Shown here in pieces: positions 1 to 45,914 of a stretch of DNA of 64,000 nt. The notes under the pieces are model-generated. The model was not told the origin of the DNA, ran no database searches, and worked only from the letters and a program-made list of their open reading frames with translations. Both the position numbers and the translations under genes were made by a program. The stretch is from Cyanobacteria bacterium P01_D01_bin.156 (GTDB taxonomy: Bacteria > Cyanobacteriota > Cyanobacteriia > Phormidesmidales > Phormidesmidaceae), in contig JBCCQQ010000008.1 of assembly GCA_039024555.1 (NCBI GenBank), forward strand, positions 64,001 to 128,000, written 5' to 3'. Numbering within the stretch: the stretch's first letter is position 1; each line of letters opens with the position of its first letter.

Positions 1-2
1 CC

Positions 3-28500: not shown

Positions 28501-28776
28501 AGGAATAGGACAGAAACAGATATTGCTGCCATTTGGCAAGACATCTTACAAACTGATGCAATTGGTATCTACGAGAACTTTTTTGAACTGGGGGGCCATT
28601 CCCTAACTGCCACTCGTATGAATACGCGACTGCGAAAACAGTTTGAACTGAATTTGCCGCTCCATAGCGTGTTTGAATATCCCACCATTGAGGTCCTTGC
28701 AGTGCATATTGATGCCCTGCGCATTGCCGCTAAGCCCACCGAGTCACCCACTGGCCATAAGGAGATTGAGCTATGA
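25528..28776 (+). CDS. NRPS C(DCL)-A(Ser)-T
   Basis: DIYPLSPMQQGLLFH and HHLILDGWS. A code DVWHISLIDK (Ser). T GGHSL. C-terminal tail GHKEIEL resembles a docking SLiM. Confidence 0.92.
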   Translation: MNAVAAKRNSIEDIYPLSPMQQGLLFHTLLSPAAGAYVPQVVVSFSGSLDSQLLQQAWQTILERHSILRTGFYWEQRDQPFQVVQRSVALPWVEQDWSSLSATEQASKLTVLLECNRNESFNLSKPPLMRLTWVSLGKGDLGEERYHLIWCYHHLILDGWSSSQLLKEVFQQYFILTGTLPSLTATPAKPYGEYIAWLNQQDKTAAQNFWETYLSNWQGPTALPILQTERPQTGSLEQQQYVISAEATQVLRDFIQRYKITLNTLIQGALGLLLSRYTNSHDVVFGATCAGRPTELAGSLSMVGLFINTLPVRVQVKPQATAASWLQDLVAQQTETITYEYVSLRELQAWSNDGRSLFDCLLVFESYPVATDMFQGQTAFKLDDIQFNEWTHFPLTLLVSEGKELAITAKYRSEQISPEAITRLLGHLNNVLLGLAQHPKGNLQDIDLLSATEKQQLTEWNLTQANYPLGQVLPNLLALQAKKSPSTTAVIFEDQALTYQELHQKANQLAHHLQSQGIASEHRVGIYFQRALGMTVAILAVIKAGAAYVPLDPEYPAARLHWMLEDADITAVIIDKLLNLPPLPDTVVTIDVTDGSQQPSTEPKHGLTHENSAYNIYTSGSTGKPKGVINTHRGLVNRLCWMQEAYGLTEEERILQKTPLSFDVSVWELFWPLLNGATLVIAKPGGHRDSTYLAKTICQQQITTVHFVPSMLAAFLEDPDVSTCTSLRRVICSGEALSPALQKQFFEKLPNTELHNLYGPTEAAIDVTAWQCQPGEATVPIGRPIANTQIHLLDQDNNSVPIGIPGELHIGGAGVARGYLNRPELTAERFITNPFFEIGSRKLEVGSNTSSSALRSPSSVLYKTGDLARYRPDGAIEYLGRKDFQVKLRGMRIELGEIEAALNDYPGVQQSVVLLQDDVAGGPALVAYLVGIAVGDLKLALTAFLKQRLTEAMIPKVFISMESMPLTSNGKLDRRALPQPEQMATVEKVLPRNRTETDIAAIWQDILQTDAIGIYENFFELGGHSLTATRMNTRLRKQFELNLPLHSVFEYPTIEVLAVHIDALRIAAKPTESPTGHKEIEL
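28040..28107 (+). repeat. Intragenic composite repeat: 4 TTGGAAG-type + 4 CTCCGTC-type heptamers
   Basis: Units at 28040-67 and 28080-107, before YKTGD of the Ser A domain. Confidence 0.9.
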
Positions 28777-31700
28777 GTATGACCAGCGATCGCACCATTG
28801 AAACATTTCTGGCCGATCTTGCTCGCCAGGACATTAAGCTATGGCTAGACGGAGAAAAGCTCAGGTGCAGTGGTCCAGAAGAACTGCTTACCGACAACTT
28901 TAATGCAGGTCTAAAGGCTCGTAAGGCAGAGATTATTGATTTTTTGCAACAGGTACATGGGCAATCGGCCACACCTAAAATTACTCCCGCCGAGCGCAGT
29001 GGCTCTCTGCCACTTTCCTTTGCCCAGCAGCGTCTGTGGTTCCTAAATCAGATGCAGCCTGAGGCGGCAGTGTATAACCTGCCCATGGCCATTGAAGTAG
29101 AGGGCTTTCTGGATGTAGCTGCCTTTACCCAGAGCCTAAACGACATTGTGCGTCGTCATGAAGCATTACGCACTCGATTTATTACCGTTGATGGTCAGCC
29201 AACCCAGGTGGTGGAAGCACCGGTCCCCGTCACCATAGAAGAAATAAATTTACAGAATAAGGCTGATGTAGAAGCCCAGGTAAGACAGGCGGCGATTGTT
29301 GCTGCTCAGAAGCCTTTTGACCTGAGCCAAGACCAGCTACTGCGGGTTACTCTACTACGCCTAAGTGAAGCAAAGTCGGTGGTGTTGTTCACCCTCCACC
29401 ACATTATTGCCGATGGCTGGTCCATGGAGATTTTGATCCAGGAACTAGGGGCAGGCTATCGAGCTGCGTTGATGGGGCAGATGGCATCTTTACCCAACTT
29501 GTCAGTACAGTACGCTGATTTTTCGGTGTGGCAGCGCCAGTGGCTTCAAGGAGAGAATCTAGAAAAACAGCTTAACTATTGGCGAAATCAGTTAGACATT
29601 CACCAGCCTGTGCTGCAACTGCCGACAGATTTTCCTCGGGCCAGGGTGCAAACCTATCGGGGTGCAGTGAAACAGTTTTCATTGTCACCAGAATTAAGTC
29701 AAAAACTCACTGCCCTTGCCCAGAGTCAATCAGCTACAGTCTTTATGACTCTACTGGCGGCATTCAAGGTACTGCTTTATCGGTATACAGGCCAAACGGA
29801 CCTGGTGGTGGGCACACCCATCGCCAATCGTCATCGCGCCGAGGTGGAAGGGCTGATTGGATTATTTATCAATGTGTTGGCGCTGCGATCGCAACTCTCT
29901 CCCCAAGCTGGTTTTCAAGATCTCCTAGCTCAGGTAAAAGCCATTACTCTCAATGCCTACGACCATCAAGATCTTCCCTTTGAGAAGTTGGTGGATGAGC
30001 TGCAGCTAGAGCGAGATTTAAGCTACAGCCCTCTATTTCAGGTCAAGTTTCGTCTGGAAAATGCCCCCCAAGAGACTCTCAGCTTACCGGGGCTAACCTT
30101 TAAGCGACTGCCCCAGGCGGTGACCACCGCCAAGCTAGACCTCAGTGTCGATCTATATGAAACTCCCAACGGCATTGTCGGTGGCTTTGAATACAACTGC
30201 GATCTGTTTAAGTCGGAAACCATTCAGCGGATGGTGCACCATTTTCAAATAATTCTGGCCTCCATTGTGGCTGCTCCAGATCGACCCATTGCTGAGCTCC
30301 CCATGCTTACCGAAACTGAACTGCAGCAACAGCTGGTGGACTGGAACACTACGGAGAAACCCTATCGCCAGAATAGCTGTTTCCACTATCTCTTTGAAGA
30401 ACAGGTAGAGAAAACGCCTGGTGCGATCGCACTTATCTACGACGACGGAACCACTCCTCAACAGCTGTCTTACCAGGAACTCAACCAGCGCAGCAACCAG
30501 CTAGCCCACCGCCTAATCTCTCTAGGCGTCAGCCCAGAAAAGATTGTCGGCATCTGCGTAGATCGCTCCCCTGAGATGATTATTGCTATGCTGGCTGTGC
30601 TTAAGGCCGGTGGAGCCTACCTACCCTTAGATCCCACCTATCCGCCAGAACGTCTGGACTACATGCTCTCCGACGCCCTGGTAGCGGTACTGCTTACCGA
30701 GAGCAAATTCTCTTTTGACCTAAGCGCTCAGCGGGTAAACCTGGATACCCAATGGCCCCAGCATCAGCCCAATACTAATCCTGAGCATATCGTTGGCCCC
30801 AACAATCTGGTCTACCTGATTTATACCTCCGGCTCCACCGGTAAACCTAAAGGTGTCCTGATTCCCCACAGTGGTTTAGTCAACCTAACAGAAGACAAAA
30901 TTCGCATCTGTCAAGTACGCCCTGGTGACTGCATCCTACAATTCTTCTCCTTTAGCTTTGATGCCTCTATTCCAGAAATCATCATGGCATTGGCCACAGG
31001 TTCAAAGCTTTTGCTGGCTCCGGCCACTACCATGCTGCCTGGCCCCGACCTGAAAAATCTCATCCAGCGGCACAACGTCACCCACATCACGATTACTCCG
31101 TCTGCCTTGGTGAGTGTACCCTACGATGATTTTCCAGAGCTGCGCATGGTGCTAGTCGGTGGCGAAGCTCCCAGTCCAGAACTCATTGAAACCTGGAGCC
31201 AAAACCGGCTATTTATCAATGCCTACGGTCCCACTGAAACCACTGTAAATGCCAGTATGGTGCCCTGCGGCAATGGCCATCCGGTGGAACCAACACTGTT
31301 ACCCAGCACTAACAAACAGCTGTATATCCTGGACAATAATCTCCAGCTGTTACCCATCGGCGTACCCGGTGAGCTACACATCGCCGGAGTGGGATTGGCC
31401 CGTGGGTATTTGAATCGTCCCGATCTAACAGCAGAACGGTTTATTGCAAACCCATTTGCCAGGAAGCAGGGGAGCAACCGGAAGTCGGAAGTCGGAAGTC
31501 GGAAGTCGGAAGTCCACCCATCACCCACCCTCTATAAAACTGGTGACCTTGCCACATACCTCCCCGATGGTCGCATTAAGATTCTGGGTCGCATCGACAA
31601 TCAGACTAAGATTCGTGGCTTCCGCATAGAGCTGGGAGAAGTTGAGCGCATTCTACAGTCTCACCCAGATATCAAAACCAGCATTGTTGTGGTTAGAGAG

Positions 31701-32207
31701 GATAATGGCAACAAGCGACTGGTGGCCTACGGTGTGCCGATGGTGGCTAACGGCGCAACACCAACAGAAATTCGACAGTTTGTGGCAGAAACACTGCCTC
31801 AGTATATGGTGCCGTCAGTGTTTATATGGTTGCCTGCTCTACCGTTAACGCCCAACGGTAAGGTAGATACCAAGTCGCTGCCTGCACCCACTGTTGTCTC
31901 TAATCAGGAACAGGTAGCTCCTCGCAATGCCACAGAACAGACTTTGGCTGAGATTTTTGCCCAGGTGCTCTCTTTAAAGTCTGTAAGCATCTACGATGAT
32001 TTCTTTGATTTAGGTGGTCATTCCTTACTGGCCACACAGCTTGTGGCTCAACTTCTCAATCAGTTCTCAGTGGAAATCACGGTGATTGATTTATTTGAGG
32101 CTACCACCGTAGCAGGGTTAGCCCAGCGGGTAGAGCAAAAACGACGCTTAGCTCAGATGCAGCTACCGGTAGACAGCGATGAAGAACGGGAGGAGATTGC
32201 ATTATGA
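28773..32207 (+). CDS. NRPS TubC_N (beta-hairpin docking)-C-A(aromatic, Tyr/DOPA-like)-T; last elongation module
   Basis: N-terminal FLADLARQDIKLWLDGEKLRC...LKARKAEII docking domain. C HHIIADGWS. A code read by eye is DAPTLGAVNK. T GGHSL. C-terminal EEREEIAL. No TE domain. Confidence 0.9.
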   Translation: MSMTSDRTIETFLADLARQDIKLWLDGEKLRCSGPEELLTDNFNAGLKARKAEIIDFLQQVHGQSATPKITPAERSGSLPLSFAQQRLWFLNQMQPEAAVYNLPMAIEVEGFLDVAAFTQSLNDIVRRHEALRTRFITVDGQPTQVVEAPVPVTIEEINLQNKADVEAQVRQAAIVAAQKPFDLSQDQLLRVTLLRLSEAKSVVLFTLHHIIADGWSMEILIQELGAGYRAALMGQMASLPNLSVQYADFSVWQRQWLQGENLEKQLNYWRNQLDIHQPVLQLPTDFPRARVQTYRGAVKQFSLSPELSQKLTALAQSQSATVFMTLLAAFKVLLYRYTGQTDLVVGTPIANRHRAEVEGLIGLFINVLALRSQLSPQAGFQDLLAQVKAITLNAYDHQDLPFEKLVDELQLERDLSYSPLFQVKFRLENAPQETLSLPGLTFKRLPQAVTTAKLDLSVDLYETPNGIVGGFEYNCDLFKSETIQRMVHHFQIILASIVAAPDRPIAELPMLTETELQQQLVDWNTTEKPYRQNSCFHYLFEEQVEKTPGAIALIYDDGTTPQQLSYQELNQRSNQLAHRLISLGVSPEKIVGICVDRSPEMIIAMLAVLKAGGAYLPLDPTYPPERLDYMLSDALVAVLLTESKFSFDLSAQRVNLDTQWPQHQPNTNPEHIVGPNNLVYLIYTSGSTGKPKGVLIPHSGLVNLTEDKIRICQVRPGDCILQFFSFSFDASIPEIIMALATGSKLLLAPATTMLPGPDLKNLIQRHNVTHITITPSALVSVPYDDFPELRMVLVGGEAPSPELIETWSQNRLFINAYGPTETTVNASMVPCGNGHPVEPTLLPSTNKQLYILDNNLQLLPIGVPGELHIAGVGLARGYLNRPDLTAERFIANPFARKQGSNRKSEVGSRKSEVHPSPTLYKTGDLATYLPDGRIKILGRIDNQTKIRGFRIELGEVERILQSHPDIKTSIVVVREDNGNKRLVAYGVPMVANGATPTEIRQFVAETLPQYMVPSVFIWLPALPLTPNGKVDTKSLPAPTVVSNQEQVAPRNATEQTLAEIFAQVLSLKSVSIYDDFFDLGGHSLLATQLVAQLLNQFSVEITVIDLFEATTVAGLAQRVEQKRRLAQMQLPVDSDEEREEIAL
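31462..31530 (+). repeat. Intragenic composite repeat: AGCAGGGG remnant + (CGGAAGT)5 + CACCCA units
   Basis: Heptamers at 31479-31513 are the reverse orientation of the 12929 and 20300 arrays, before YKTGD. Confidence 0.95.
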
Positions 32208-35200
32208 TCTCCCTCAAAGACTTCATCGGCTATCTTAAACCCCAGGTGGTAGCAGAACCGCTGATTCGTCAATGGTATGCCTGGAGCTATCTGATTCCAC
32301 CAGCCACAGCGGCTCGGTATCTAACAGAGTCGCAGCTGAAAATTATGGAATCCTTTGTGGCTGCGCCAGAGGTTCATGCTTCTACGCTGAGAGATCCTGC
32401 TATGCAGGGAGGGCCTTTTATTAACCATGGACCTGGCCGAGTGGGTGAGGTCAAGACACTCTTAGAAAAGAGTAAAGCAGAGCAGGCAAAACTATTGGGT
32501 TTGAGCGATGCGATCGCAACCCTCACTCACCAGCTGAACCAACATCCTCCAGGCAAATCCCTAGAATCTCTTTATGCCCAGATACCGGAACCCCTCCAAG
32601 GCTACGTAGAGCTAGTTTATGATGCCGAAAACAATCCATCTATTCGCTTTATTGAGGGTCTGTTGTACCGCAGCGAATATTACAACTCAGCGGACCAAAG
32701 TATTGCCTTACGCGTATACGCTAACAGCGACCAACGTGCTTTTGTAATGAGCACTCCGCGTCTACCCGATAACGACAGTCTGTTTCTCCCCATCCCTTTT
32801 GTAGATTCCCGGTTAGATCAGCTTTTCCAAATGCGGCACACCCCTAATTCAGTGGAAGCCATGGCTGATTTATTGGAGATTACAGGCTCGAATCGTCCAT
32901 TCTTTTACAATCTCTTTACCCCTGAAGCACCTAGAAAAAATCCGTCCTATCAAGATGACGGCGTTAGAATTCGCTACCTAGGACATGCCTGCGTGCTGAT
33001 CGAAACCGCAGAAATCTCTATTCTCTGCGACCCGCTAGTGAGCTACGAACATCCTGCGGGAATGGAGCGCTACAGCTATAAGGACCTGCCAGAAACCATT
33101 GACTATGCCCTGATTACCCACAACCATCAGGACCACGTCATGCTAGAAACATTGCTACAGCTGCGCCACAAAATCAAGCATATTGTTATCCCCAGCAGTC
33201 AAAAGGGCTCTCTCCTCGATCCATCCCTCAAGCTTGCCCTTCAACAAATCGGCTTTTCTCAAGTACGAACTTTAGACGAGCTAGAAAGCATCCCCCTTCC
33301 CGATGGTGAAATCATCAGCATTCCTGTTCTGGGGGAACACGGCGATCTCAATATCTCTACCAAAAACGCCTACTGGATTAACCTCAAGGGTCATTCCATA
33401 CTGTGTGCCGCTGACTCTAACAATCTTGATCCTAGACTCTACAGCCATATCAATCATTTACTGGGTGATCTCGATATTCTCTTTATCGGCATGGAATGCG
33501 ACGGTGCCCCCTTCACCTGGGCCTACGGGCCGCTACTGCCTCAGCCTACTCCCCACAAACAAGCCCAAACCCGTCGCCTTGATGGCTCCAATGCAGAACG
33601 AGCTCTTACCCTGGTTAACCAGCTCAACCCGCAACAAGTTTACGTCTACGCTATGGGTCAAGAACCCTGGCTTACCTACATTACTTCTATCAATTACACC
33701 CCAGATTCCACTCCCATTATTGAATCCAATCAGCTAGTCAAACACTGTCAACAACAGAATCGCACTAGCGAACGTATGTTGGGACGAAAAGAAATCAAGC
33801 TACCCCCGAGCCAGACTAAACAAACGAAAAAGAACAACCCCATTCCTGTCCTTTCCGAATTTCGAACTCCGAATTCCGAATTCCAAAGCCCACCGCTCCA
33901 CCCCTCCACCGCGTCCCTACCCTCGTCATCCTCTGTCAAATCAATGACTGCTGACACCCTCACCCCCTTCCTCGCCCAACTTCAAAGCCTCGATATTCGC
34001 CTCTGGATGGACGGTGATACACTGCGCTGCAACGCACCCAAGGGTGCCTTAACCCCAGAATTAACAATTAAACTAAAAGAACACAAACCAGAAATCATTG
34101 CCCTACTTAAAAACACCACGGCGCAAACTTCACCCTCGACACCAGCCAATCCTCAAGCAACATCTTCTGTTCAAGTGCCTGACTGGCGACAGGATCTCAT
34201 TCTCCCAGCAGATATTATCCCGACTCCTCCGCTCCACCACTCCACTACTCCCAAAAATATCTTCCTAACCGGAGCTACAGGATTCCTAGGGGCCTTTCTA
34301 CTATATGAACTCCTACAACAAACTGATGCGACCATCTATTGCCTGGTACGAGAATCTAAATCAGGCCTAGATACACTGGAACAGTGTCTGTCCAGCTATA
34401 GAATCTGGCAGCATAGTTTTGCCTCTCGTCTCATACCAGTTTCGGGAGATTTAAGTGAGTCGTTTCTAGGATTATCTGAGACCTATTTTGAGGCTCTAAC
34501 CGAACAAATTGATAGCGTTTATCACAATGGTGCTCAGGTTCACCATATTTCTCCCTACGCCCAGCTTAAAGCAGCTAATGTAAACGGCACCCGAGAAATT
34601 ATTAAGCTAGCCTGCCAAGGGCGGCCTAAGTCCTTGCACTACACGTCCACGCTTAGTGTTCTACCGCCAACGCCGCTGCCGGGACAGGTCAAGCTCTATG
34701 AGCAGAGCAACTTGGGAGATTATCCTGTGCCAACTGGAGGCTACAACCGGACTAAGTGGGTAGCAGAACAGCTAGTGGCACAGGTTCGCGATCGCAACCT
34801 CCCTGTTACCATCTATCGCCCTGGTCCTATCTCTGGCCATAGTCAAACCGGCGTTTTTAATCGCAACGATTTTCTCTATCGGCTGATGCAGGGCTATGTG
34901 CAATCTGGCATGGCCCCGGAAGGAGAGATGCCTCTGGATATGCTGCCAGTGGACTACGTGAGTAAAGCCATGGTCTATTTATCCCTGCAACCCGAGTCCG
35001 TGGGTAAAGCCTTCCATCTAATTCACCCAGAATCGGCATCCTCAAATCTGTTATTTGAAGCATGTCAAAGGGCTGGCTATCCCATCCAGCGGGTGCCCTA
35101 TGAGCAATGGTTTAAGAAACTAATGCTCATTGCCCAGGGAGATGAACAGCATGCATTGTATCCTCTAGTTTCCCTATTCTCATCACGGACTGGTGAGAGC

Positions 35201-35368
35201 AACGCGGCCAATCAGGCCCTGGAAGTTCCGTTTGATACGGAGCAAACCTATACCGGATTGAAAAATGCTCCCTTTGATTTACCACGATTAAATCAATCGT
35301 TATTTGATACCTATCTGAAGGCCATGGTTGCAACCGGTACGTTATCGCCGCCCCCGGTGTTGACATAA
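32204..35368 (+). CDS. Fusion: CmlA-like metallo-beta-lactamase-fold diiron beta-hydroxylase + TubC_N docking domain + terminal thioester reductase (R)
   Basis: N-terminus EPLIRQWYAWSYLIPP...MQGGPFI, THNHQDH, GEHGDL and ADSNN match CmlA-family motifs. Internal FLAQLQSLDIRLWMDGDTLRCNAP docking domain. R domain has TGATGFLG, YNRTK and IYRPG. Confidence 0.88.
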   Translation: MISLKDFIGYLKPQVVAEPLIRQWYAWSYLIPPATAARYLTESQLKIMESFVAAPEVHASTLRDPAMQGGPFINHGPGRVGEVKTLLEKSKAEQAKLLGLSDAIATLTHQLNQHPPGKSLESLYAQIPEPLQGYVELVYDAENNPSIRFIEGLLYRSEYYNSADQSIALRVYANSDQRAFVMSTPRLPDNDSLFLPIPFVDSRLDQLFQMRHTPNSVEAMADLLEITGSNRPFFYNLFTPEAPRKNPSYQDDGVRIRYLGHACVLIETAEISILCDPLVSYEHPAGMERYSYKDLPETIDYALITHNHQDHVMLETLLQLRHKIKHIVIPSSQKGSLLDPSLKLALQQIGFSQVRTLDELESIPLPDGEIISIPVLGEHGDLNISTKNAYWINLKGHSILCAADSNNLDPRLYSHINHLLGDLDILFIGMECDGAPFTWAYGPLLPQPTPHKQAQTRRLDGSNAERALTLVNQLNPQQVYVYAMGQEPWLTYITSINYTPDSTPIIESNQLVKHCQQQNRTSERMLGRKEIKLPPSQTKQTKKNNPIPVLSEFRTPNSEFQSPPLHPSTASLPSSSSVKSMTADTLTPFLAQLQSLDIRLWMDGDTLRCNAPKGALTPELTIKLKEHKPEIIALLKNTTAQTSPSTPANPQATSSVQVPDWRQDLILPADIIPTPPLHHSTTPKNIFLTGATGFLGAFLLYELLQQTDATIYCLVRESKSGLDTLEQCLSSYRIWQHSFASRLIPVSGDLSESFLGLSETYFEALTEQIDSVYHNGAQVHHISPYAQLKAANVNGTREIIKLACQGRPKSLHYTSTLSVLPPTPLPGQVKLYEQSNLGDYPVPTGGYNRTKWVAEQLVAQVRDRNLPVTIYRPGPISGHSQTGVFNRNDFLYRLMQGYVQSGMAPEGEMPLDMLPVDYVSKAMVYLSLQPESVGKAFHLIHPESASSNLLFEACQRAGYPIQRVPYEQWFKKLMLIAQGDEQHALYPLVSLFSSRTGESNAANQALEVPFDTEQTYTGLKNAPFDLPRLNQSLFDTYLKAMVATGTLSPPPVLT
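33853..33914 (+). repeat. Repeat-built interdomain linker: 5 TTCCGAA-type heptamers + CACC-type octamers
   Basis: Heptamers at 33853-87 and CACCGCTC CACCCCTC CACCGCGT at 33891-914, between the hydroxylase and docking domains. Confidence 0.9.
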
Positions 35369-35439
35369 TTTTTGGTTTCGTGCCCACCCTACAGTTTCCT
35401 CCTTGCCCCCTTCTCCCCTGCCCCCTTTCTCCTCCTACC

Positions 35440-36360
35440 ATGACCGAACGTTATACCGACTACAACAATTGGGCCTGGCTCTACAACAAGACCGTGGGAC
35501 CAGACTATAGCAAGCCTCAACTGGCATTGCTTGAGAGGGTGTTGTTACCCCACATACCAAAGCAAGGAAAGATTTTAGATTTGTGCTGTGGTACGGGGCA
35601 ATTGATTCAGCCACTAATTGAGGCTGGATATGATGTGGTGGGACTGGATGGCTCTGAGGAAATGTTGGCCTATGCCCGGCAGAATGCGCCCCAGGCTGAT
35701 TTTCTCCTAGAGGATGCCCGCACCTTTGATTTGGAAGCCAGTATTGACGGTGTATTTTCCACCAGCGCTTCTCTCAATCATTTGATGAGTTTGCCAGAGC
35801 TGACCCAGGTATTTGAGCGAGTGTATCGGGCTCTGAAACCAGACGGCATATTTGTGTTTGACCTCAACCATCCAGAGCAGCTAGAACGCTGGTGGCAAGG
35901 GCAACCCACTGAAGGTGAAATTAGTCGCTACTTTGCTTGGATGATTACTCCTCGCTACGATTCCAACTCTGCTGAAGGAGCATTTGAAGTCACTATTTAT
36001 CAGTCTTCCGTAAAATCCTCTGGCCTGATTAGACAGCTGTTGTTTCCCATTAAAAGGATGCTGTATACGCTATTAAGCCGCCCCCGCTTTATCGGTCTAC
36101 GTCTGCGGGTTCTACAAAATTTTGCTGGCTTTGAACCCCACTGGGAACAGAAAAAACTTAGCTATCCCGTCAAGGGCCACGAGATTAATGCTGTTATTAC
36201 AGCACTTCAGCAGGTGGGATTTAAGGACATCTCGCTACAAACTATTGATGGTTCTTCAAAAATTGACGATCGCCATTCCGCCCATTTTATTTGCCAGAAA
36301 TCGTCCTCTACTTGTTTAAATACAACGGCTGAAACAGTCTCGGTTATGGATTCACCATAG
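35440..36360 (+). CDS. Class I SAM-dependent methyltransferase (candidate N-methyltransferase)
   Basis: ILDLCCGTGQ, GLDGSEEML and LKPDGIFVFD motifs. ATG35440 is preferred because the GTG35380 extension only translates a C/T repeat. Confidence 0.88.
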   Translation: MTERYTDYNNWAWLYNKTVGPDYSKPQLALLERVLLPHIPKQGKILDLCCGTGQLIQPLIEAGYDVVGLDGSEEMLAYARQNAPQADFLLEDARTFDLEASIDGVFSTSASLNHLMSLPELTQVFERVYRALKPDGIFVFDLNHPEQLERWWQGQPTEGEISRYFAWMITPRYDSNSAEGAFEVTIYQSSVKSSGLIRQLLFPIKRMLYTLLSRPRFIGLRLRVLQNFAGFEPHWEQKKLSYPVKGHEINAVITALQQVGFKDISLQTIDGSSKIDDRHSAHFICQKSSSTCLNTTAETVSVMDSP

Positions 36361-36430: not shown

Positions 36431-37879
36431 ATGACCACCACAATTTCCACACAACAACACCTCCAAGGAATCATAGAGCGTTACACTCAGCGTACTGTGA
36501 AATCAAAACAACAGGCTGCGGCCAACCGCTCTGTCGTGGCGGATAAAAGTTCCATTGGGTTTAATTTCTCCCTGGAAACGAAGGAGATGTGCTATCCAGT
36601 GGTGGCAGCAAGAGCTGAAGGTTCTCGACTTTGGGATATTGATGGCAATGAATATATCGATATCCTGATGGGGCTGGGCACCTATCTATTTGGCCACAAT
36701 CCTCCTTTTATTCGAGAAGCACTAGAAACCCAGTTAAAAAAAGGAATTCCCATCGGACCCCAAGCAGAGTTAGTGGGAAACGTTGCCCAACTAGTGAGTG
36801 CTCTCACGGGAATGGAGCGGGTCACATTTAGCAACACCGGCACTGAAGCGGTGATGACAGCTGTGCGCATTGCTCGTACGGCTACCAAGCGCAAAAAAAT
36901 TGCGGTATTTACCAACTCTTACCACGGTCATTTTGATGCGGCCCTGTTGCGAGCTCCCCTGAGCGAATATGCTCGCAAAAAGGCAGTAAGAGTAACCGGC
37001 TCTAAACCCTGGCTAGCGCCAGTTAACTGGCTACTCAAACAAAAAATTAACAGCCGTGCAGTACCGGCGGCTCTGGGTATTCCTCCAGCGGTAGCGCAGG
37101 ATGTCATGGTTTTAGAATACGGCAATCCTCAGTCATTAGCTGCCATTAAAGCCAACCGCAACAAGCTAGCAGCGGTTTTAGTAGAGCCTGTGCAAAGCCG
37201 CTGCCCGGAGCTACAGCCTAGAGATTTTTTACAGGAACTGAGATCGCTAACCAGCCAAATTGGTACAGCTCTAATTTTTGACGAAATGGTTACCGGCTTT
37301 CGGGTGCAACCTGGCGGTGCCCAAGCCCACTTTGGGATTCAGGCCGATCTCGCCACCTACAGCAAAATTGCAGGCGGTGGTTTACCCCTATCCATCATCG
37401 CCGGTAAATCTCGATTTATGGACCACATTGATGGTGGCCAATGGTGCTACGGTGACGACTCCCAGCCCCAGGTAAACACCACTTTCTTTGCTGGTACTTT
37501 CTGCAAACATCCTTTGGCTCTGGCCACGGCCCATGCTACCCTCAGCCGACTAAAGGCAGAGGGGACTGGGTTACAAACAGATTTGAACAAGAAAACAATT
37601 GATCTGGTAAATCGGCTTAACAGCTTTACCTCAGAGGCGCATTTGCCCGTGAGGTTTACCCAGTTTGGCTCCTTCTTTGCGATCGCACTCACCCAAAGCA
37701 AAATCTCCCCTCTGGCCACCAATCTACTGTCCTACCATCTGCTCAACCGCGGCATCCACCTACGGGGCGGCGACAAAGGCGGTTTTCTCTCCACCGCCCA
37801 TACCACAGACGACATCCACAAAATCTATACCGCCTTTTGCGAAGGTCTTACCGCCCTCCAACAAGCGAATTATATCTAG
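36431..37879 (+). CDS. Class III PLP aminotransferase resembling PKS/NRPS-embedded AMT domains
   Basis: LWDIDGNEYID, NTGTEA, VEPVQ, FDEMVTGFR, DLATYSK (PLP Lys) and FFAGTF. Confidence 0.92.
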   Translation: MTTTISTQQHLQGIIERYTQRTVKSKQQAAANRSVVADKSSIGFNFSLETKEMCYPVVAARAEGSRLWDIDGNEYIDILMGLGTYLFGHNPPFIREALETQLKKGIPIGPQAELVGNVAQLVSALTGMERVTFSNTGTEAVMTAVRIARTATKRKKIAVFTNSYHGHFDAALLRAPLSEYARKKAVRVTGSKPWLAPVNWLLKQKINSRAVPAALGIPPAVAQDVMVLEYGNPQSLAAIKANRNKLAAVLVEPVQSRCPELQPRDFLQELRSLTSQIGTALIFDEMVTGFRVQPGGAQAHFGIQADLATYSKIAGGGLPLSIIAGKSRFMDHIDGGQWCYGDDSQPQVNTTFFAGTFCKHPLALATAHATLSRLKAEGTGLQTDLNKKTIDLVNRLNSFTSEAHLPVRFTQFGSFFAIALTQSKISPLATNLLSYHLLNRGIHLRGGDKGGFLSTAHTTDDIHKIYTAFCEGLTALQQANYI

Positions 37880-37924: not shown

Positions 37925-38143
37925 ATGACCCAATCCACCGAAATCACCTATCGCGTAGTTATCAGCGACGAAGAACGTTACTCTATCTGGCCTGAATATA
38001 AAGAAATCCCTTGGGGTTGGAGGGCTGAAGGAAAACTGGGTACTAAACAAGAATGTCTTGATTATATTGGCGAAGTTTGGACCGACATGCGCCCCCTCAG
38101 TTTGAGAAAAGCCATGGCGAAAAACCAGCAAGATAATGATTAG
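37925..38143 (+). CDS. MbtH-like NRPS accessory protein
   Basis: YSIWP...PWGW...[17 protein letters not shown] signature. Confidence 0.96.
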
Positions 38144-38684
38144 TCAGATTGCATCCACAATAGCTACTACCCATACCAGGGAAAGCTCGGTGACGCCAGA
38201 AACGACGCTTAATATGACGACACCAGATAACGCACCCAAGACCCTGGATTTACTCGTGCCCTGGGATATTCCCCTGGAGTACTCGTTGAACGATACAGAA
38301 AAACAGAAGATTCAAATTATATTGGAACAGCTTTTGTACGCGTTAAATACAAAAGATTCTTCCCAGGCACTCGCTCAGGTAGAACAATTACTCACCACTC
38401 TGCCCATACCCAACACTAAGCTAGCCCAGGTGCAGTCCACCAAGACCTCTCTCAGCACCGACGATGTGGACGACTACGACCAGTACTTTGGTATTAATCA
38501 TGTCCAAACTGACGAGACTTCCCTTTGTCTGGTGAGAGGACTATTAACTAACTGTCATCGATTTATTGCACTTTGCCATCAAAATTCTCAGCTTTCATCC
38601 AAGCATGTTGAACAACAAAAACAGGGGTTTATTAGCTATATCCATCTACTAGCAAGAGTCTTTTACCTGGAAGCGTTGTCATGA
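38136..38684 (+). CDS. Hypothetical protein in the NRPS operon (possible partner or N-terminal half of the next heme enzyme)
   Basis: 182-aa ORF overlapping MbtH and coupled by ATGA to the next gene. No motif recognised. Alternative start at ATG38214. Confidence 0.7.
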
Positions 38685-39244
38685 ATCAGACCACCCCCCA
38701 AGCCATCTGGCAAGGATTTCACTGGTCCTTTTTTATCAATGTTCAGGGCTTAATTATCAGCCTTAGACGGTTTGAAGCTCAACTGGCCCTTGGCAACCTG
38801 GACCAAGCCGAACAAGAGTTAGTGACTGCAACAGACTTGATGTTGGCATCTGGGGCCTCTATGGAACTGGCTGGCAGCTTTAGCCGGGATGCCTACGAAC
38901 AAGATGTACGACAGTCCATGACACCCCCTCAAGTACGCGCCGACAACTTTAGCGGTCTAATGTCGTGGGAACATGCGGCTCTGATGCAGATTTGGAAGCG
39001 ACTGCGGCCAACATTTGAGGCCCTGCCCAATGAGTTAAAGCCACAACACGATAAGTTTGTACAAGCCTATTTTGAACTTGCCAAGTCTCATCGTGCTATC
39101 TGTGAAAAATTTGGTGGCAGCGAGGGTGGCAGCCTTCGATTTGGCCAAAGCTGCGCAGTCGCCACCCTCGATAAATTTAAAGATAGTCGTCTGGGATTAA
39201 TTGCCCCTAAGCCACGGTCTGATTGTCCCTTTCACATGAATTAA
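38681..39244 (+). CDS. SfmD/LmbB2-like heme-dependent tyrosine hydroxylase (HDAO family), single-domain form
   Basis: ASGASMELAG..Y...VRQSMTPP....FSGL...EH and HRAICEKFGG. His codons at 38972 and 39089 plus Cys at 39101 give H-x38-H-xxx-C. C-terminal CPFH. Confidence 0.72.
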   Translation: MNQTTPQAIWQGFHWSFFINVQGLIISLRRFEAQLALGNLDQAEQELVTATDLMLASGASMELAGSFSRDAYEQDVRQSMTPPQVRADNFSGLMSWEHAALMQIWKRLRPTFEALPNELKPQHDKFVQAYFELAKSHRAICEKFGGSEGGSLRFGQSCAVATLDKFKDSRLGLIAPKPRSDCPFHMN

Positions 39245-40901: not shown

Positions 40902-41102
40902 ATGAGGATATCTCCACGCTCGATACTCAATATGGCATTTATCGGCTTAAGTATTCTATTAAGCCTTAACGCATATGGTCACTTTATACTTCACCAACCT
41001 GCAGCTGTACCGTTTTCTAATCAGTGGTGGTCCACTTGGGCTCCATGTTATATGGGTTGGATTGCAGTTTTAGGAGTAGGGCGATTAAGAAGATGTCGAT
41101 AG
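40902..41102 (+). CDS. Small hypothetical membrane protein
   Basis: Two hydrophobic segments (AFIGLSILLSLNAY and WWSTWAPCYMGWIAVLG). ATG40902 preferred. Confidence 0.5.
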   Translation: MRISPRSILNMAFIGLSILLSLNAYGHFILHQPAAVPFSNQWWSTWAPCYMGWIAVLGVGRLRRCR

Positions 41103-41124
41103 TGGAAGGTTCTCCCAAAGACTT

Positions 41125-41934
41125 TTACCGACTTGTTGATGGAGTATATGCCCAAACCTCAAACTTTGCTGTTGAAGATAGCTCAGTTGTGCTTGGGCCA
41201 TAGTATCTGATACAAAACTCTTCGAATTCTTCTACAGCAAGCTGAAAAATGTCATCCGGTGCCCACCAGCAGAAGCCATAGGCACGCGATCTAATATTGC
41301 TTAGCAGCTCTTCAACAGTATTCTTGACGATCCATTCTTTAGCAATCTGATAGGTAGATTGGTAGCCCTTATGGCGCAAGTAGAGATCAGTATCTTCAAT
41401 CAAGTTATCAAGTATCTTGGGAAATTTCACCTCTTCATACTTTGAGAGAATGCGTTTGAAGTGCATTGAGAACTCTTTGTGCGCAGGTGGGGTATTCCAT
41501 TGAGCATTGAGATAAAAACTTTCAGGCTTTAGAACCCTGGCAACCTCGTCAAGAAAGGTTTGCCAATTCGAGACGGTATGAATCATATGAACAGTAAGGG
41601 CCACGTCAAAACTGGAATCTGGAAAGGGCAGTTTTGACGCATCTGCCTGAAGCAGAGTTAGGTTTGGGGGCATCGGTTGCAGTTTTTGCCTAAACTGGTC
41701 GAGCATTTCTTTGGAAATATCGATGCCAGTAACCGGGTAGCCCCGTTTGACCAATGGGAGAACATTTAAGCCTGTACCCACACCGGGTTCTAAAAAACAG
41801 GTACTGGGGGTCGCCTTGACCAGAGCCAGAATAACGTCGGCAACATCTTCAGCAACGTGCTCGGTCATCCAGCGAGTTTGATCATAAATTGAGGCTATTG
41901 CGTTGTAGTAATTTGGCTTAACCATCTCAGGCAA
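41125..41934 (-). CDS. Class I SAM-dependent methyltransferase
   Basis: FLEPGVGTG, GIDISKEML, ADASKLPFPDSSFD and RVLKP. Confidence 0.9.
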   Translation of the reverse strand: MPEMVKPNYYNAIASIYDQTRWMTEHVAEDVADVILALVKATPSTCFLEPGVGTGLNVLPLVKRGYPVTGIDISKEMLDQFRQKLQPMPPNLTLLQADASKLPFPDSSFDVALTVHMIHTVSNWQTFLDEVARVLKPESFYLNAQWNTPPAHKEFSMHFKRILSKYEEVKFPKILDNLIEDTDLYLRHKGYQSTYQIAKEWIVKNTVEELLSNIRSRAYGFCWWAPDDIFQLAVEEFEEFCIRYYGPSTTELSSTAKFEVWAYTPSTSR

Positions 41935-41991
41935 ATTACCTTCGAGATTTAACGGATACTAAGAATTCAATTTCCATAGAGCTAAGCCCAG

Positions 41992-42387
41992 CTACTGACC
42001 TATCCGAAACACATGCCCATCAGGATATCTGACATGAAATTCTCTGACGCCCCAAGGCATATCTTCGGGAGGAAAGACAACCTCAATGCCGTGCTCAATA
42101 GCAAGAGCGTATAGCTGATCTACATTCTCTACCCAAATGGACATCCAGACTCCCTTGTCTTGGGTTTCATCCCCTCCCGGACCAAATGTACTTGAGTTGT
42201 TACCTTTACCACGACCACCCTGTCCATCCTGGCATAGAAAAATCTCACATTCTCCAGAACCTATTGCCCCAAATCCCGGTGGATCACCCCAATCCCACAG
42301 TTTCGTCCATCCCAGCTGGTCAAACCATTCAAAGCTTTCTTGCAAACTTGAAACATTTAGAATTGGGGTAATTGCTTTGGCTTTCAT
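41992..42387 (-). CDS. VOC/glyoxalase-bleomycin resistance family protein
   Basis: TPILNVSSLQESFEWF...PEDMPWGVREFHVRYPDGHVFRIG. Confidence 0.9.
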   Translation of the reverse strand: MKAKAITPILNVSSLQESFEWFDQLGWTKLWDWGDPPGFGAIGSGECEIFLCQDGQGGRGKGNNSSTFGPGGDETQDKGVWMSIWVENVDQLYALAIEHGIEVVFPPEDMPWGVREFHVRYPDGHVFRIGQ

Positions 42388-42647
42388 AAATTCATAACCT
42401 CTAGTTCTAAAATCCTGAGTTCTGTCTGTTCTTTCAGTCCGTATAAAATTCTTATCCTTGTAGTATCAAACATAAAGGTTTTACCGTTGCATCTAGCTCT
42501 GAATCAGCCATTCACGGCTCATAGTTCATCAGCTGAAATCCAGCAAAATAAAAAACTCTCGACGTATTATCTATAACAATCTTTTAACTCTGTCATTAGG
42601 AAAGAAAGTAGATTCTCCATAGCATTGCTCACATCTTTTACCTAGTC

Positions 42648-43076
42648 CTAAACCGCTCTTTGAAAGACCATCCTAACTGCTCGTCCTTCTTCACCCCAAG
42701 GGGCAATATTAGTCATTTGCAGAACCAAACTACCGTCCGGTCTCTTCGAGAGCTTACTGCGCCAACCCCAGGGAGGACCTGAGGGGTCACCATAGGAATA
42801 GTGCACAGTGAAAAGGCCCCAAGCTTCTGCCAAGTCTAGACATTGTACTGGTGTTTTCTGATGCCAACTATCTACCCAAGTAGCACTACTTTCATGAAAT
42901 GTAAAAGACCCTGTTTTTATTTCGTCCTCGTAAACCCATGTATAGGAAAGAACATTCGCCTCTATTTGCAGAGTGCATTCACTAACATCAGCGTTATTAC
43001 CGGCAGGATCAAGCCACAACTCAGCTGTACCTTTCCACTTCGTTTCCTGAAAATCATTGAGCCATAATTGAGCCAT
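42648..43076 (-). CDS. Hypothetical beta-barrel protein (DUF1579-like)
   Basis: WKGTAELWLDP, WVDSWHQ and PPWGWR motifs. Family assignment tentative. Confidence 0.65.
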   Translation of the reverse strand: MAQLWLNDFQETKWKGTAELWLDPAGNNADVSECTLQIEANVLSYTWVYEDEIKTGSFTFHESSATWVDSWHQKTPVQCLDLAEAWGLFTVHYSYGDPSGPPWGWRSKLSKRPDGSLVLQMTNIAPWGEEGRAVRMVFQRAV

Positions 43077-43137
43077 TTTACATATCCTTCACGAATATTA
43101 TCTGCTGCTTTTAGCGTCACAGTTATGCTTGGTTAAG

Positions 43138-43503
43138 CTACAGATTGTTTCCAATCCTCCACAACACACCCGTCGGATCCGTCAAGGTAAAATCACGCAT
43201 TTTCCAGTCTCTATCTTCTGGGTTACCAAGCTTGACGTTATATTTTTCTACGACTTGTTTGTCGCTAATTCGCTGCCACCAGTCATTGGCACTCTCCACG
43301 AGCAGATGCATCATAAAATTATCAGCATGCTCTTTAACATAAAAATTTTGAAGAAGAAAGCTACTACTTCCTGCTGTGAAATATGCCAAATCACTATCAG
43401 ACCACTTTAATTCAAAGCCAATATCAACATAAAATTTTTGGCTTAGGTTAAAATCTCTAGATGGCACGAACGCCTTTGCTTCGATTGTTTGATAGTTTGG
43501 CAT
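43138..43503 (-). CDS. VOC family protein
   Basis: AFVPSRDFNLSQKFYVDIGF...DRDWKMRDFTLTDPTGVLWRIG. Confidence 0.9.
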   Translation of the reverse strand: MPNYQTIEAKAFVPSRDFNLSQKFYVDIGFELKWSDSDLAYFTAGSSSFLLQNFYVKEHADNFMMHLLVESANDWWQRISDKQVVEKYNVKLGNPEDRDWKMRDFTLTDPTGVLWRIGNNL

Positions 43504-43621
43504 TTTCCTTATCCCTTTAAATATTATCTCAACAACATAACGATCAGATTTACGTCCACAAGGTGGCCTCTCTACATCCCCCCCTTTTCAGCACTCTTTG
43601 CACCATATCTAGCAATCGTAG

Positions 43622-44173
43622 TTAGGCCTTGATGTAACCCAGATAAAAACAACAAAGTTCTTCATTACTATTGAATGGAACCTCGTCATCAAATAGTCTC
43701 TCAAGTTTATCCACCGTCCCATGCCATCCTGCAGTGACTGAGGACCAAATTGTTCCAGGGCCACCAGACTGTTGTTCAAATTTCGTCGGCATGCCATTAA
43801 TAGCTTCGGAAGCAAGGACAGTCGGCCCAAAAGTATCCAAAAACATAAAAGTTGTTTCATTGTCACCCTTGGCCTCTAACTCGAATCTCATTCCTCCCGT
43901 TCCACGATAAGAGCCTCTTGGCTCATTGAGAGCGATATAACGAAGTGGCTCATAGCTGGTGATTGTATTATCCCAATGATGACTGAAGAGGCCATCAATC
44001 CTGAGATTAAACACCCTAGGAGGCACTATCCACCACTTTTCTAGACCTTCTTTAGTGCTTACCGCTTGCCAGACCTGCCCAATAGGCGCTTGTACATACC
44101 TCACCCAGCACATCGCATAAGCAGTTATCAAGTGGCCTACTCGGTCAAAACGTATCTCTAAAGTACTTTCCAT
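43622..44173 (-). CDS. SRPBCC/AHSA1-like ligand-binding domain protein
   Basis: RYVQAPIGQVWQAVSTKEGLEKWW...AGWHGTVDKLE. ATG44173 preferred over TTG44197. Confidence 0.8.
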   Translation of the reverse strand: MESTLEIRFDRVGHLITAYAMCWVRYVQAPIGQVWQAVSTKEGLEKWWIVPPRVFNLRIDGLFSHHWDNTITSYEPLRYIALNEPRGSYRGTGGMRFELEAKGDNETTFMFLDTFGPTVLASEAINGMPTKFEQQSGGPGTIWSSVTAGWHGTVDKLERLFDDEVPFNSNEELCCFYLGYIKA

Positions 44174-44478
44174 AAGGCCCTGATGCCTTTCGTTCAAGGA
44201 TATATACTTACGAGGCTACTCAAACTTACCACACAATAAAACATTTGTACTGCCAAAAGTGTTTACCATGAAGCGTACTGTGTGAAACGTTATGATGACA
44301 AATCTTGCGTCAAAGCAATGACCTTCAAAGTCAGTTGCATAGCGCAGTATATTTTCAACTCCAGATTCGTCAGTATCCGCAAACGCTAATATAGCAAATG
44401 AGCCTACACATAGGTCTGTTGAATGAAGTGATCATATCGAGCATTCGCACCTTCAGACGCGCTACGCTTAGCACTTAT

Positions 44479-44497
44479 ATTGAGAATAATTCTACCT
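44479..44497. promoter_or_regulatory. Fur-box-like 19-mer upstream of tyrosinase
   Basis: ATTGAGAATAATTCTACCT, about 90 bp before the start codon. Confidence 0.55.
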
Positions 44498-44588: not shown

Positions 44589-45914
44589 GTGCTTCAAAGA
44601 CTGAATTCTACATTTTCGTTTTCAAAGAAGTTAACGCTGAGTTTTTTTATTGGCGTGATTTTGGTAGTTGCGATCGCAATCATTGCCCTTTCCAGGCTGC
44701 ACGATAATTCTGGAGTTTACTATCCTCCTCCCCCAAATGCCACCGGTCCGGAGCTGGTTTTTCCAAATCTTTCCCAGTCTCAAGAACGCCATATACGTAA
44801 AAGCGTGACCGCGCTAACCCCAGAAGAAAAGTTCGCTTTTGTTACTGCCGTCAACACTCTACAATCAACATATCCTGAGGGCTCGCGGCTCAGCCTATAC
44901 GAACAGTTTGTAGTTCAACATATTTTAACCATGGGATTTCGTCAGAGCTTGGGAGCCACCGGTCCGGCTCGCGGGAATCCCGCCCACAGTTATCCAGCGT
45001 TTTTGCCTTGGCATCGACAGTTCCTACTCGACTTTGAGCAGGCGCTGCAGACAGTCGATGAAAGTATCACTATTCCTTACTGGGACTGGACCGATCCAGA
45101 TGCGCTTAACGTGATGCTACAAGAAGATTTTTTGGGAACATCAGGGCAAGGTACCTTTGTTGAAGTTCCTGAACACGGACGCTTTGAGGGCGGTGAGGTA
45201 AAAACTAGCCCATTCGCAGCATGGCAGCTCAACGAAACTCTCCACTTTGATGCCATGACATTAGAGTCGTTAGGACCTCATCTGCTCAGGTTTTCTACGT
45301 TGCCGCCGTTTGATAGCTATCCCTTACCTCAGAGTGAAATCAACAGTCTCTTTAATACCGACAACTATGAAGTGTTTAATGCACTGATTGAAGGTGCACT
45401 AGTGCCGGATAATAATGCTAACTCAGATTATGTTCCTGGTTGGGCGCTACATGCCTTTGCCCACTCTATTATCGGTGGTAGTCAAGTCGATTGGACTGAT
45501 TGGAACCAAGGGATTGCGCACCAAACGGATATTTTAGGCACAATGGACAGCATCCCCTGCTCTCCTTACGATCCTATTTTTTGGCTACATCACGCCAATG
45601 TGGATCGCCTTTGGGCGCAGTGGCAAGATGACGGACACAGTGGTGATGCATTTTATCCAGCAAGCGAACGACCCTTTGGTCATAATCTCTCTGATCCAAT
45701 GTGGCCCTGGGACGGTGGGCTATCTTCTCCCGGTAACTACGGTCCTAAAAATGCAAACCTGACAGAGATGTTTACGCCCCCAGCAGCTACCAAGATTGTT
45801 AGCGCGCAAGATGTCTTAGATTTTCGTCAGCTAGGCTATACCTATACAGATTTAGCTGATGGCACAGAAGCAATAGATAAGACAGAGAACCGTGAGATAG
45901 TCCCAGCTTTATAA
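44589..45914 (+). CDS. Tyrosinase (type-3 copper) with N-terminal signal/anchor
   Basis: CuA QH...AHSYPAFLPWHR, IPYWDWT, CuB LHAFAH...DPIFWLHHANVDRLW. N-terminal KK followed by hydrophobic FFIGVILVVAIAIIAL. Confidence 0.92.
   Translation: MLQRLNSTFSFSKKLTLSFFIGVILVVAIAIIALSRLHDNSGVYYPPPPNATGPELVFPNLSQSQERHIRKSVTALTPEEKFAFVTAVNTLQSTYPEGSRLSLYEQFVVQHILTMGFRQSLGATGPARGNPAHSYPAFLPWHRQFLLDFEQALQTVDESITIPYWDWTDPDALNVMLQEDFLGTSGQGTFVEVPEHGRFEGGEVKTSPFAAWQLNETLHFDAMTLESLGPHLLRFSTLPPFDSYPLPQSEINSLFNTDNYEVFNALIEGALVPDNNANSDYVPGWALHAFAHSIIGGSQVDWTDWNQGIAHQTDILGTMDSIPCSPYDPIFWLHHANVDRLWAQWQDDGHSGDAFYPASERPFGHNLSDPMWPWDGGLSSPGNYGPKNANLTEMFTPPAATKIVSAQDVLDFRQLGYTYTDLADGTEAIDKTENREIVPAL

Follow-up and report, generated by a model that had tools for sequence, protein, structure and literature searches.

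A candidate cyanobacterial variant of the fabrubactin-type siderophore pathway with a predicted hydroxylated Dmaq end group

Siderophores that end in dimethyl-amino-dihydroxy-tetrahydroquinolinium (Dmaq) are the nearest described relatives of the product predicted for the gene cluster considered here, which occupies part of a 64,000-nucleotide stretch of the genome of Cyanobacteria bacterium P01_D01_bin.156 and extends 5' of it (the whole stretch, hereafter the window, is G000:C8:64001-128000, on a 137-kb contig of a 6.6-Mb genome). Fabrubactins A and B come from Agrobacterium fabrum C58 (Vinnik et al. 2021, as cited in PMC12971057, 10.1101/2022.12.14.519525, PMC11837247 and PMC13451346). PMC12971057 reports their Dmaq pathway as established, its first step being the formation of L-3,4-dihydroxyphenylalanine (DOPA) by FbnL and FbnM, which together make up a heme peroxidase of two proteins and serve as an antiSMASH marker, and credits their two α-hydroxycarboxylate chelators to the monooxygenase FbnE. 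For anachelin, the Dmaq genes Red, MT, AmT and TyrH have been proposed (PMC4247773). A further point of reference is the iron-regulated cluster of Nostoc PCC 7120 (Jeanjean 2008, as cited in PMC4005646, PMC6562677 and PMC4247773), which comprises seven nonribosomal peptide synthetases (NRPSs) and two polyketide synthases (PKSs) at all2641-all2649 with FurA boxes (PMC4005646), and which has been called an orthologue of the clusters in Nodularia and Agrobacterium C58 (PMC4247773). Its product is stated to be not known in PMC6562677 and in a 2026 preprint whose list of 24 cyanobacterial siderophores includes schizokinen, synechobactins, anachelins, cyanochelins, leptochelins and lusichelins (10.64898/2026.07.24.740629).

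From its gene content, motifs, conservation and co-occurrence, the terminal cassette of the window cluster is best read as the Dmaq end of a fabrubactin-type siderophore pathway (Table 1). The DOPA-type module, reductase, methyltransferase and aminotransferase that a Dmaq metallophore cluster requires are all present, and domain searches bore out the original prediction of a last module with an aromatic-type adenylation (A) domain and no thioesterase, together with the positions of the genes that follow it. Because these genes lie on one strand with gaps of -8 to +70 bp between neighbours, a single operon is plausible. The in-cis reductase of the Agrobacterium and Anabaena cylindrica form (C-A-T-R, with no hydroxylase) was not encountered in the window cluster. 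Taken as a whole, the best explanation, to which we assign a probability of roughly 0.65, is a Fur-regulated fabrubactin-type lipopeptide pathway in a cyanobacterial variant, the product of which would carry two α-hydroxycarboxylates and a β-hydroxylated Dmaq.

Judged by homology, the closest known system is fabrubactin, and not only anachelin; the original prediction of a new metallophore type related to anachelin gives way on this point, since fabrubactin is the nearest family and the cluster appears to be of the same type as the iron-regulated one of PCC 7120, which has been studied before. Nor is the cassette a new assembly, Dmaq genes having been proposed earlier for anachelin (PMC4247773) and the fabrubactin pathway being reported as established (PMC12971057). 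The comparison was made through the plasmid cluster of A. tumefaciens AF1/95 (L007), standing in for that of C58, which contains a fatty acyl-AMP ligase (FAAL), a PKS, a monooxygenase, Gly, a second PKS, Ala, Cy-Cys-Ox, Gly, Ala-E and the DOPA module. The window cluster has in common with fabrubactin the FbnL/FbnM-like pair, DOPA-type module, reductase, methyltransferase, aminotransferase, MbtH, FAAL starter and Atu3671-family monooxygenase (62% identical to its Agrobacterium counterpart, and scoring 504 bits against TIGR04020, cut-off 244), as well as the core Gly-ketide-Ala-thiazole-Gly-D-Ala and two PKSs with a degenerate ketoreductase (KR). The canonical KR glycine motif is absent from both L007 PKSs and from the two matching PKSs of the window cluster, and is kept in those of A. 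cylindrica. In sum, the FAAL starter, the FbnE-type monooxygenase and the two α-hydroxycarboxylate PKS modules of the fabrubactin family are all present, and the backbone is not identical to that of L007.

The source of DOPA appears to be a split heme enzyme. A single SfmD-like heme hydroxylase had been predicted; the homology stood, and the gene proved to be two. The 187-aa (FbnM-like) protein matches SfmD with an E value of 1.2e-9, and its His98, His137 and Cys141 align with SfmD His274, His313 and Cys317 and are invariant in 18/18 aligned homologues; the roles of SfmD His274 and Cys317 are described in PMC11951088. For the 182-aa (FbnL-like) protein, a Foldseek search with its model (pLDDT 85) ranked SfmD first (E 0.045), and the model aligns with the SfmD N-terminal half over 141 residues (Z 8.9, root-mean-square deviation 3.4). 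Against this assignment, domain searches gave no family match for the 182-aa protein, a profile search against solved sequences found no relative, and unrelated helical bundles matched its fold as well as SfmD did. Modelled as a complex, the two halves scored 0.92 (best control 0.00), beyond a mark that 116 of 157 solved complexes attained, as did 2 of 215 mismatched pairs, with at least 96% contact agreement between runs and a partner pLDDT of 91; this pass may stem from likeness to solved SfmD. Identity to the A. vitis pair is 34% (FbnL-like) and 57% (FbnM-like), and to the A. tumefaciens pair 28% and 50%. The antiSMASH rule for Dmaq metallophores, as given in PMC12971057, is FbnL and FbnM next to an NRPS, an arrangement found here as judged by homology. 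In comparison with SfmD, the saframycin 3-methyl-tyrosine hydroxylase, both halves match and the heme His and Cys are kept, but the window enzyme is divided over two genes.

When species genomes were scanned for the 187-aa gene, 128 relatives came to light, and the locus counts reported here (L numbers) cover the best 80. An FbnL-like gene was present in 60 of the 61 such loci with 6 kb of upstream sequence. As the heme pair is always there, tyrosinase was rejected as the source of DOPA. Matches to the 187-aa protein in G320, G065, G352, G318, G364 and G266 fall inside frames that span 340-407 aa and could represent unsplit SfmD-like hydroxylases. At L075:5692-11676 (Symploca sp. SIO3C6), a DOPA-coded C-A-T leads straight into an fbnL/M-like pair and a thioesterase; the locus contains neither reductase nor methyltransferase nor aminotransferase, and may encode a DOPA peptide with a different end group.

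The component that sets the window cassette apart is the fusion of a diiron hydroxylase, a docking domain and a reductase. Among solved structures the fusion matched 8a90 (E 2e-147), CmlA 4jo0 (E 2e-114) and the MxaA reductase domain 4u7w (E 5e-90). Its hydroxylase region has the CmlA_N domain and the metallo-β-lactamase fold with the residues HxHxDH..E..D..E, the putative diiron ligands as in CmlA. The putative metal-site residues (His306, His308, Asp310, His311, Glu378, His379, Asp404 and Glu431) are invariant in 37/37 full-length domains. An extra β-hydroxylase had been predicted for this locus, and the present evidence supports it and points to the last module as its most likely site of action. 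CmlA and FrsH hydroxylate amino acids bound to a carrier (PMC7794379); the window enzyme shares the domain architecture and diiron motif of these enzymes, and differs from them, stand-alone as they are, in being joined to a docking domain and a reductase. An acidic-hydrophobic docking motif (EEREEIAL-like) ends all 38 last modules that are followed by a fusion, but is absent from all 15 that carry a reductase themselves; motifs of this kind bind TubC-type β-hairpin docking domains (PMC13324335). The fusion would be a compact example of a docking domain that brings two tailoring enzymes to one carrier. At L083:1818-6863 (Phormidium LEGE 05292), a last module with the docking motif precedes a stand-alone 482-aa reductase and no hydroxylase, an intermediate of the two cassette types.

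The A code of the last module, DAPTLGAVNK, which would load L-DOPA, is identical in 55/55 related modules of both cassette types, Agrobacterium and A. cylindrica included (modules chosen at 53% identity or more, two rows being one plasmid), and both types should therefore load the same residue. This identity of code in hydroxylase-free cassettes, together with the reductase of L083 that stands without a hydroxylase, could also be read to mean that the hydroxylase domain is an inactive passenger and that the product ends in plain Dmaq. We regard this as highly improbable, given that the metal-site residues are invariant and that the hydroxylase domain is better conserved (58-83% identical to that of the window) than the fused reductase (41-78%).

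The substrate of the hydroxylase is the more difficult question. In hypeptin, diiron hydroxylases act on Asn, and it is conceivable that the enzyme acts elsewhere than on the last module, most likely on the Asn-coded first amino-acid module (giving β-hydroxy-Asn), the chain then ending in ordinary Dmaq. An Asn-coded module is present in the window cluster, in G059, G166, G376, G406, G407 and G408, and in seven of ten further fusion-bearing genomes. However, the fusion and its docking bind the enzyme to the last module, G206 has the fusion but no Asn-coded module, the Asn-coded A domain was not found in three of the ten genomes, and Asn-type codes occur in two clusters without the fusion; we therefore consider an Asn target unlikely. 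With the enzyme joined to the last module in this way, and the Asn module uncoupled from the fusion, the best inference from sequence is that carrier-bound DOPA of the last module, and not the Asn module, would be the target. Several points weigh against this reading: the substrate of a diiron hydroxylase is not readable from sequence; the best solved match, 8a90, which we take to be the leucine hydroxylase FrsH, is no aromatic hydroxylase; the Asn-coded module does accompany the fusion in those seven genomes, completeness of the other three not being established; a benzylic hydroxyl on a catechol may be lost as water, such that the isolated product could differ; and the roles given to the fabrubactin monooxygenase and the catechol oxidant rest on secondary accounts. 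In chloramphenicol biosynthesis, a CmlA-type enzyme is likewise paired with an A-T-R module on an aromatic residue.

We infer the chemical steps of the pathway, their order and the target of the hydroxylase as follows. The two small genes would form one heme enzyme converting free tyrosine to L-DOPA, which the last module, with MbtH, would load. The C-terminal motif of that module would dock on the β-hairpin domain in the middle of the fusion and so set diiron hydroxylase and reductase beside the same carrier domain, where the hydroxylase would place a hydroxyl group on the β carbon of carrier-bound DOPA. After condensation the reductase would release the chain as an aldehyde, aminotransferase and methyltransferase would convert it to the dimethylamine, and upon oxidation of the catechol the amine would close the ring to give 4-hydroxy-Dmaq. 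Ring closure would in general not need a tyrosinase, although where one is present it probably accelerates closure outside the cytoplasm. The predicted origin of a Dmaq-type end from tyrosine or DOPA by reductive release, transamination and N-methylation is sustained as a reading of gene content and homology. More tentatively, and at somewhat less than even odds, we propose that the commonest cyanobacterial form of the Dmaq cassette (that of Nostoc PCC 7120, Nodularia and Crocosphaera watsonii included) makes an undescribed 4-hydroxy-Dmaq from carrier-bound β-hydroxy-DOPA, which may dehydrate to a conjugated, pyoverdine-like dihydroquinolinium chromophore, and that the linked, Fur-controlled, membrane-anchored tyrosinase is the long-proposed Dmaq cyclase, serving as an optional extracytoplasmic maturase.

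With regard to distribution, the best 80 of the 128 loci comprise 39 with hydroxylase and reductase in one frame (two broken into two frames and two cut at contig ends), one with the two in pieces, 12 with C-A-T-R in one gene and no hydroxylase, and 28 unclassed, mostly on short contigs. The C-A-T-R type includes plasmid clusters of Agrobacterium and Acaryochloris; the fusion type includes Gloeocapsa PCC 7428. Across 401 genomes drawn evenly from the phylum, among which the window genome is counted and related genomes are not independent, the split fbnM-like gene was found in 14; twelve of these have the hydroxylase in a frame of at least 1000 aa, in 11 cases on the same contig within about 7 kb. 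The module order of the window recurs in G406 (as a whole cluster), Nodularia chucula, G059, G166 and G376, and in rearranged and partly seen form in Crocosphaera watsonii WH 8501; the stretch G403:C25 held no cluster genes. The variant occurs in nitrogen-fixing and bloom-forming cyanobacteria of iron-poor waters. In a quick tree, the aminotransferases of cyanobacterial hydroxylase-free cassettes form a clade of their own and three changes of fusion label are needed, the direction of gain or loss not being fixed by the tree. L081, L088 and G206:C1:375570-381221 combine the fusion with a methyltransferase and aminotransferase of the hydroxylase-free type and are likely recombinants; L081 and L088 have two methyltransferases each. 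A hydroxylase-dock-reductase fusion labelled Burkholderiales bacterium (P0276) is 46% identical to a Trichormus protein, and the form may extend beyond cyanobacteria.

The tyrosinase has six likely copper-binding His residues and one N-terminal hydrophobic helix. It had been described as exported, about 5 kb downstream of the cassette and preceded by a Fur-like box; the place and the box (matched in 0/100 shuffles of the window) both stood, and export is likely, either as a cleaved or as a membrane-anchored protein. The intervening 5.3 kb has a GC content of 0.415 (vs 0.494) and genes mostly on the opposite strand; its block 40015-44197 (DoxX, a methyltransferase, two glyoxalase-fold genes, DUF1579-like and AHSA1 genes) looks like an insertion. 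Chance proximity to the cassette was rejected, as the linkage is recurrent: a tyrosinase lies within 10 kb of the cassette in 15 of the best 80 of 128 loci, often overlapping the fbnM-like gene, and is linked in 9 of the 39 loci whose downstream sequence reaches 8 kb or more; both cassette types are among its neighbours. Such linkage, the finding that the four closest orthologues among the 401 genomes (11 of which have a tyrosinase match) are all in cassette-bearing genomes, the Fur-like boxes (12 and 13 of 14 matches) that precede the two closest orthologues and the tyrosinase route proposed for anachelin (PMC6562677) would each suit the strict form of the original prediction, in which tyrosinase is the required cyclase for the chromophore and part of a complete set. 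This is nevertheless very unlikely. No orthologue was found in 10 of the 14 cassette-bearing genomes of the 401-genome sample, nor any tyrosinase in ten of ten further genomes by a protein search that had no positive control; a Pfam search in five genomes, with a working positive control, returned none in three (A. cylindrica UHCC 0172, the complete C. watsonii WH 8501 and G406, the nearest relative of the window cluster) and a single, unlinked match in Acaryochloris. Because it was not found in those 10 of 14 genomes, the tyrosinase is probably an optional accessory, and not a required step, that would speed ring closure outside the cytoplasm. PvdP, the pyoverdine maturation tyrosinase, is tied to a tyrosine-derived dihydroxyquinoline chelator (PMC12971057), and resembles the window enzyme in that a tyrosinase is linked to such a pathway; the latter differs in being probably optional, in showing no twin-arginine motif at its N-terminus and in having ordinary tyrosinases as its closest solved matches.

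The same pattern of occurrence could be taken to mean that ring closure happens only where a tyrosinase is present and that the end is otherwise an open-chain, methylated diamine derived from β-hydroxy-DOPA (noradrenaline-like) that binds iron through its catechol, since 11 of the 16 fusion-bearing loci with at least 8 kb downstream have no tyrosinase, and the separate aminotransferase clade of hydroxylase-free cyanobacterial cassettes fits a different substrate. We find this quite unlikely: Dmaq-type cassettes of Agrobacterium and A. cylindrica also showed no linked tyrosinase, so that ring closure evidently happens without it, and tyrosinase occurs with both cassette types.

The predicted iron regulation received support from Fur-like boxes and TonB uptake genes, and we predict from sequence that the pathway is Fur-regulated. 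Fur-type palindromes with at least 12 of 14 matches number 134 in the genome but only two on the 137-kb contig, one about 100 bp before the FAAL gene, the first of the cluster, and one about 95 bp before the tyrosinase; it is not the number of such sites that is unusual, but their positions. A 16-mer common to both boxes has three copies in the genome, the third before a flavodoxin gene among photosystem II-family (isiA-like) antenna genes, a classic iron-stress locus; since the first two sites supplied the pattern, the third site and its context are the sole independent evidence. Scans for generic promoters and terminators gave no excess over shuffles.

The cluster as a whole is of FAAL-PKS-NRPS type and about 75 kb in size, its first gene lying 35 kb 5' of the window start; downstream of the monooxygenase it has seven NRPS genes and one further PKS. 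Along the chain, the A codes read DATKVGEVGK (with E), DILQLGLIWK, DAFWLGGTFK (E), DILQLGVIWK, DLFNNALTYK, DLYNLSLIWK (Cy, Ox), DILQLGMIWK, DLFNNALTYK (E), DVWHISLIDK and DAPTLGAVNK, which we take, tentatively, to denote Asn, Gly, Val, Gly, Ala, Cys, Gly, Ala and Ser, followed by an aromatic residue. Neither the text nor the supplement of PMC12283262 yielded these codes. The chain would comprise an unsaturated methyl-branched acyl group, an α-hydroxycarboxylate unit, D-Asn(?)-Gly-D-Val-Gly, a second α-hydroxycarboxylate unit and Ala-thiazole-Gly-D-Ala-Ser-(OH)Dmaq; the backbone predicted earlier (D-Val?-Gly-ketide-Ala-thiazole-Gly-D-Ala-Ser-aromatic) agrees with the A codes and omits the part upstream of the window. 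By analogy, six iron ligands may be expected from the two α-hydroxycarboxylates and the catechol. The stand-alone thioesterase was rejected as the release enzyme because the reductase is intact. In-frame, low-complexity short repeats (e.g. GSRKSEV and SEFRTPNSEF types) occur in variable loops of several A domains and, at about 33850-33950, in the linker between hydroxylase and docking domain; they are typical cyanobacterial short tandem repeats. Further along the window (52796-62930) lie two SbmA/BacA-like ABC transporters, then a TPS-domain protein, a CHAT/TPR protein and a DUF928 gene, for none of which did the present tests show a link with the cluster.

Table 1. Features of the cluster and its surroundings. 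Positions are those of the window; rows with no position lie upstream of it. C, condensation; Cy, cyclisation; T, carrier; E, epimerisation; Ox, oxidation; R, reductase; TE, thioesterase domain; SAM, S-adenosylmethionine; PLP, pyridoxal phosphate.
Position	Strand	Feature	Basis
		Uptake and export genes preceding the cluster: exbB, exbD, tonB, AMIN-domain TonB receptor, MFS exporter	
		FAAL-acyl-CoA dehydrogenase-ACP; two reducing PKSs KS-AT-DH-MT-ER-KR-ACP (C-methyltransferase); PKS KS-AT-KR-ACP with degenerate KR	
		Atu3671/MupA-family flavin monooxygenase; NRPS C-A[Asn-like]-T-E	
1..2525	+	NRPS 3' end (total 2587 aa, starting upstream of the window), C-A[Gly]-T-C-A[Val]-T-E	domain search, A codes
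2522..5812	+	NRPS C-A[Gly]-T	domain search, A code; residue presumed from code tables
5809..10272	+	PKS KS-AT-KR-ACP; KR without canonical NADPH-binding glycine motif, like Agrobacterium counterparts	
10269..17636	+	NRPS C-A[Ala]-T-Cy-A[Cys]-Ox-T (thiazole)	domain search, A codes
17633..25531	+	NRPS C-A[Gly]-T-C-A[Ala]-T-E	domain search, A codes
25528..28776	+	NRPS C-A[Ser]-T, short acidic-hydrophobic docking motif at end	domain search, A code
28773..32207	+	Last module TubC_N-C-A-T, no TE or R; A code DAPTLGAVNK; ends in docking motif EEREEIAL	
32204..35368	+	Fusion: CmlA/FrsH-type diiron β-hydroxylase (1-535), TubC_N β-hairpin docking domain (589-636), thioester reductase (685-1046)	
35380..36360	+	SAM-dependent methyltransferase (putative N,N-dimethylation); true start may be ATG at 35440	
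36431..37879	+	Class III PLP aminotransferase (putative aldehyde to amine)	
37925..38143	+	MbtH-like protein	
38136..38684	+	FbnL-like half, 182 aa; model aligns to SfmD residues 18-165	
38681..39244	+	FbnM-like half, 187 aa; matches SfmD residues 187-358	
44478..44495	+	Fur-like box (7-1-7), about 95 bp 5' of tyrosinase; overlaps a -10-like hexamer	
44589..45914	+	Tyrosinase (type III copper) with a hydrophobic helix at its N-terminus; accessory gene	
49630..50706	-	Sucrase/ferredoxin-like protein, recurrent next to such clusters	
50785..51510	+	Type II (stand-alone) thioesterase, recurrent next to such clusters	

Compared with anachelin of A. cylindrica, the window cluster has the counterparts of Red, MT, AmT and TyrH, and the same last A code is found in strain UHCC 0172. 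That strain, which is not the characterised anachelin producer (it has one Ser module, not Thr-Ser-Ser), differs from the window in having C-A-T-R in one gene, no hydroxylase and no tyrosinase found. The single Ser module stands before its DOPA module, and a pyridoxal-dependent decarboxylase lies 3' of its fbnM-like gene (L040:10585-11952). Anachelin has a salicylate starter and canonical KRs, whereas the window cluster has a fatty-acyl starter, a monooxygenase and a thiazole; neither the salicylate starter nor the Atha and Thr-D-Ser-Ser units of anachelin were found, and the predicted difference in backbone is upheld by the FAAL start and the other modules. Identity with fatuamide or cyanochelin was rejected, as these have other chelators according to the literature.

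Nostoc PCC 7120 offers a further comparison. BAB74340.1, a CmlA_N-TubC_N-reductase protein, is 50% identical to the window fusion, and the adjacent accession BAB74339.1 is a methyltransferase 51% identical to that of the window and shares a 90% cluster with a protein that bears the name Nostoc sp. PCC 7120; we presume these to be All2641 and All2640. The seven NRPS genes and the PKS of the window cluster match the published count. The tentative assignment to this cluster type draws on the two PCC 7120-linked proteins and, for module order, on the relatives N. chucula, G059, G166 and G376; a look-up of further cluster proteins returned no PCC 7120 member. The literature searched on anachelin, fabrubactin, Dmaq, PCC 7120, SfmD, FrsH, CmlA, quinolinium siderophores and docking, a body of work mostly outside subscription journals, was found to describe neither the fusion nor a hydroxylated Dmaq, nor the product. 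The locus is of value in that a hydroxylated chelator can be predicted from it for a cluster type of wide occurrence, and it offers a concrete structure to seek in the model strain PCC 7120, the second siderophore of which has been known genetically since 2008.

Last, in comparison with fabrubactin, the window cluster adds an acyl-CoA dehydrogenase, two reducing PKSs, D-Asn-Gly-D-Val and Ser modules and a linked tyrosinase, and its reductase is in trans, fused to the diiron hydroxylase. This is not a new kind of system, the cassette being already a genome-mining marker; the real difference is that the reductase is carried by a separate hydroxylase-docking-reductase protein and not by the last module.

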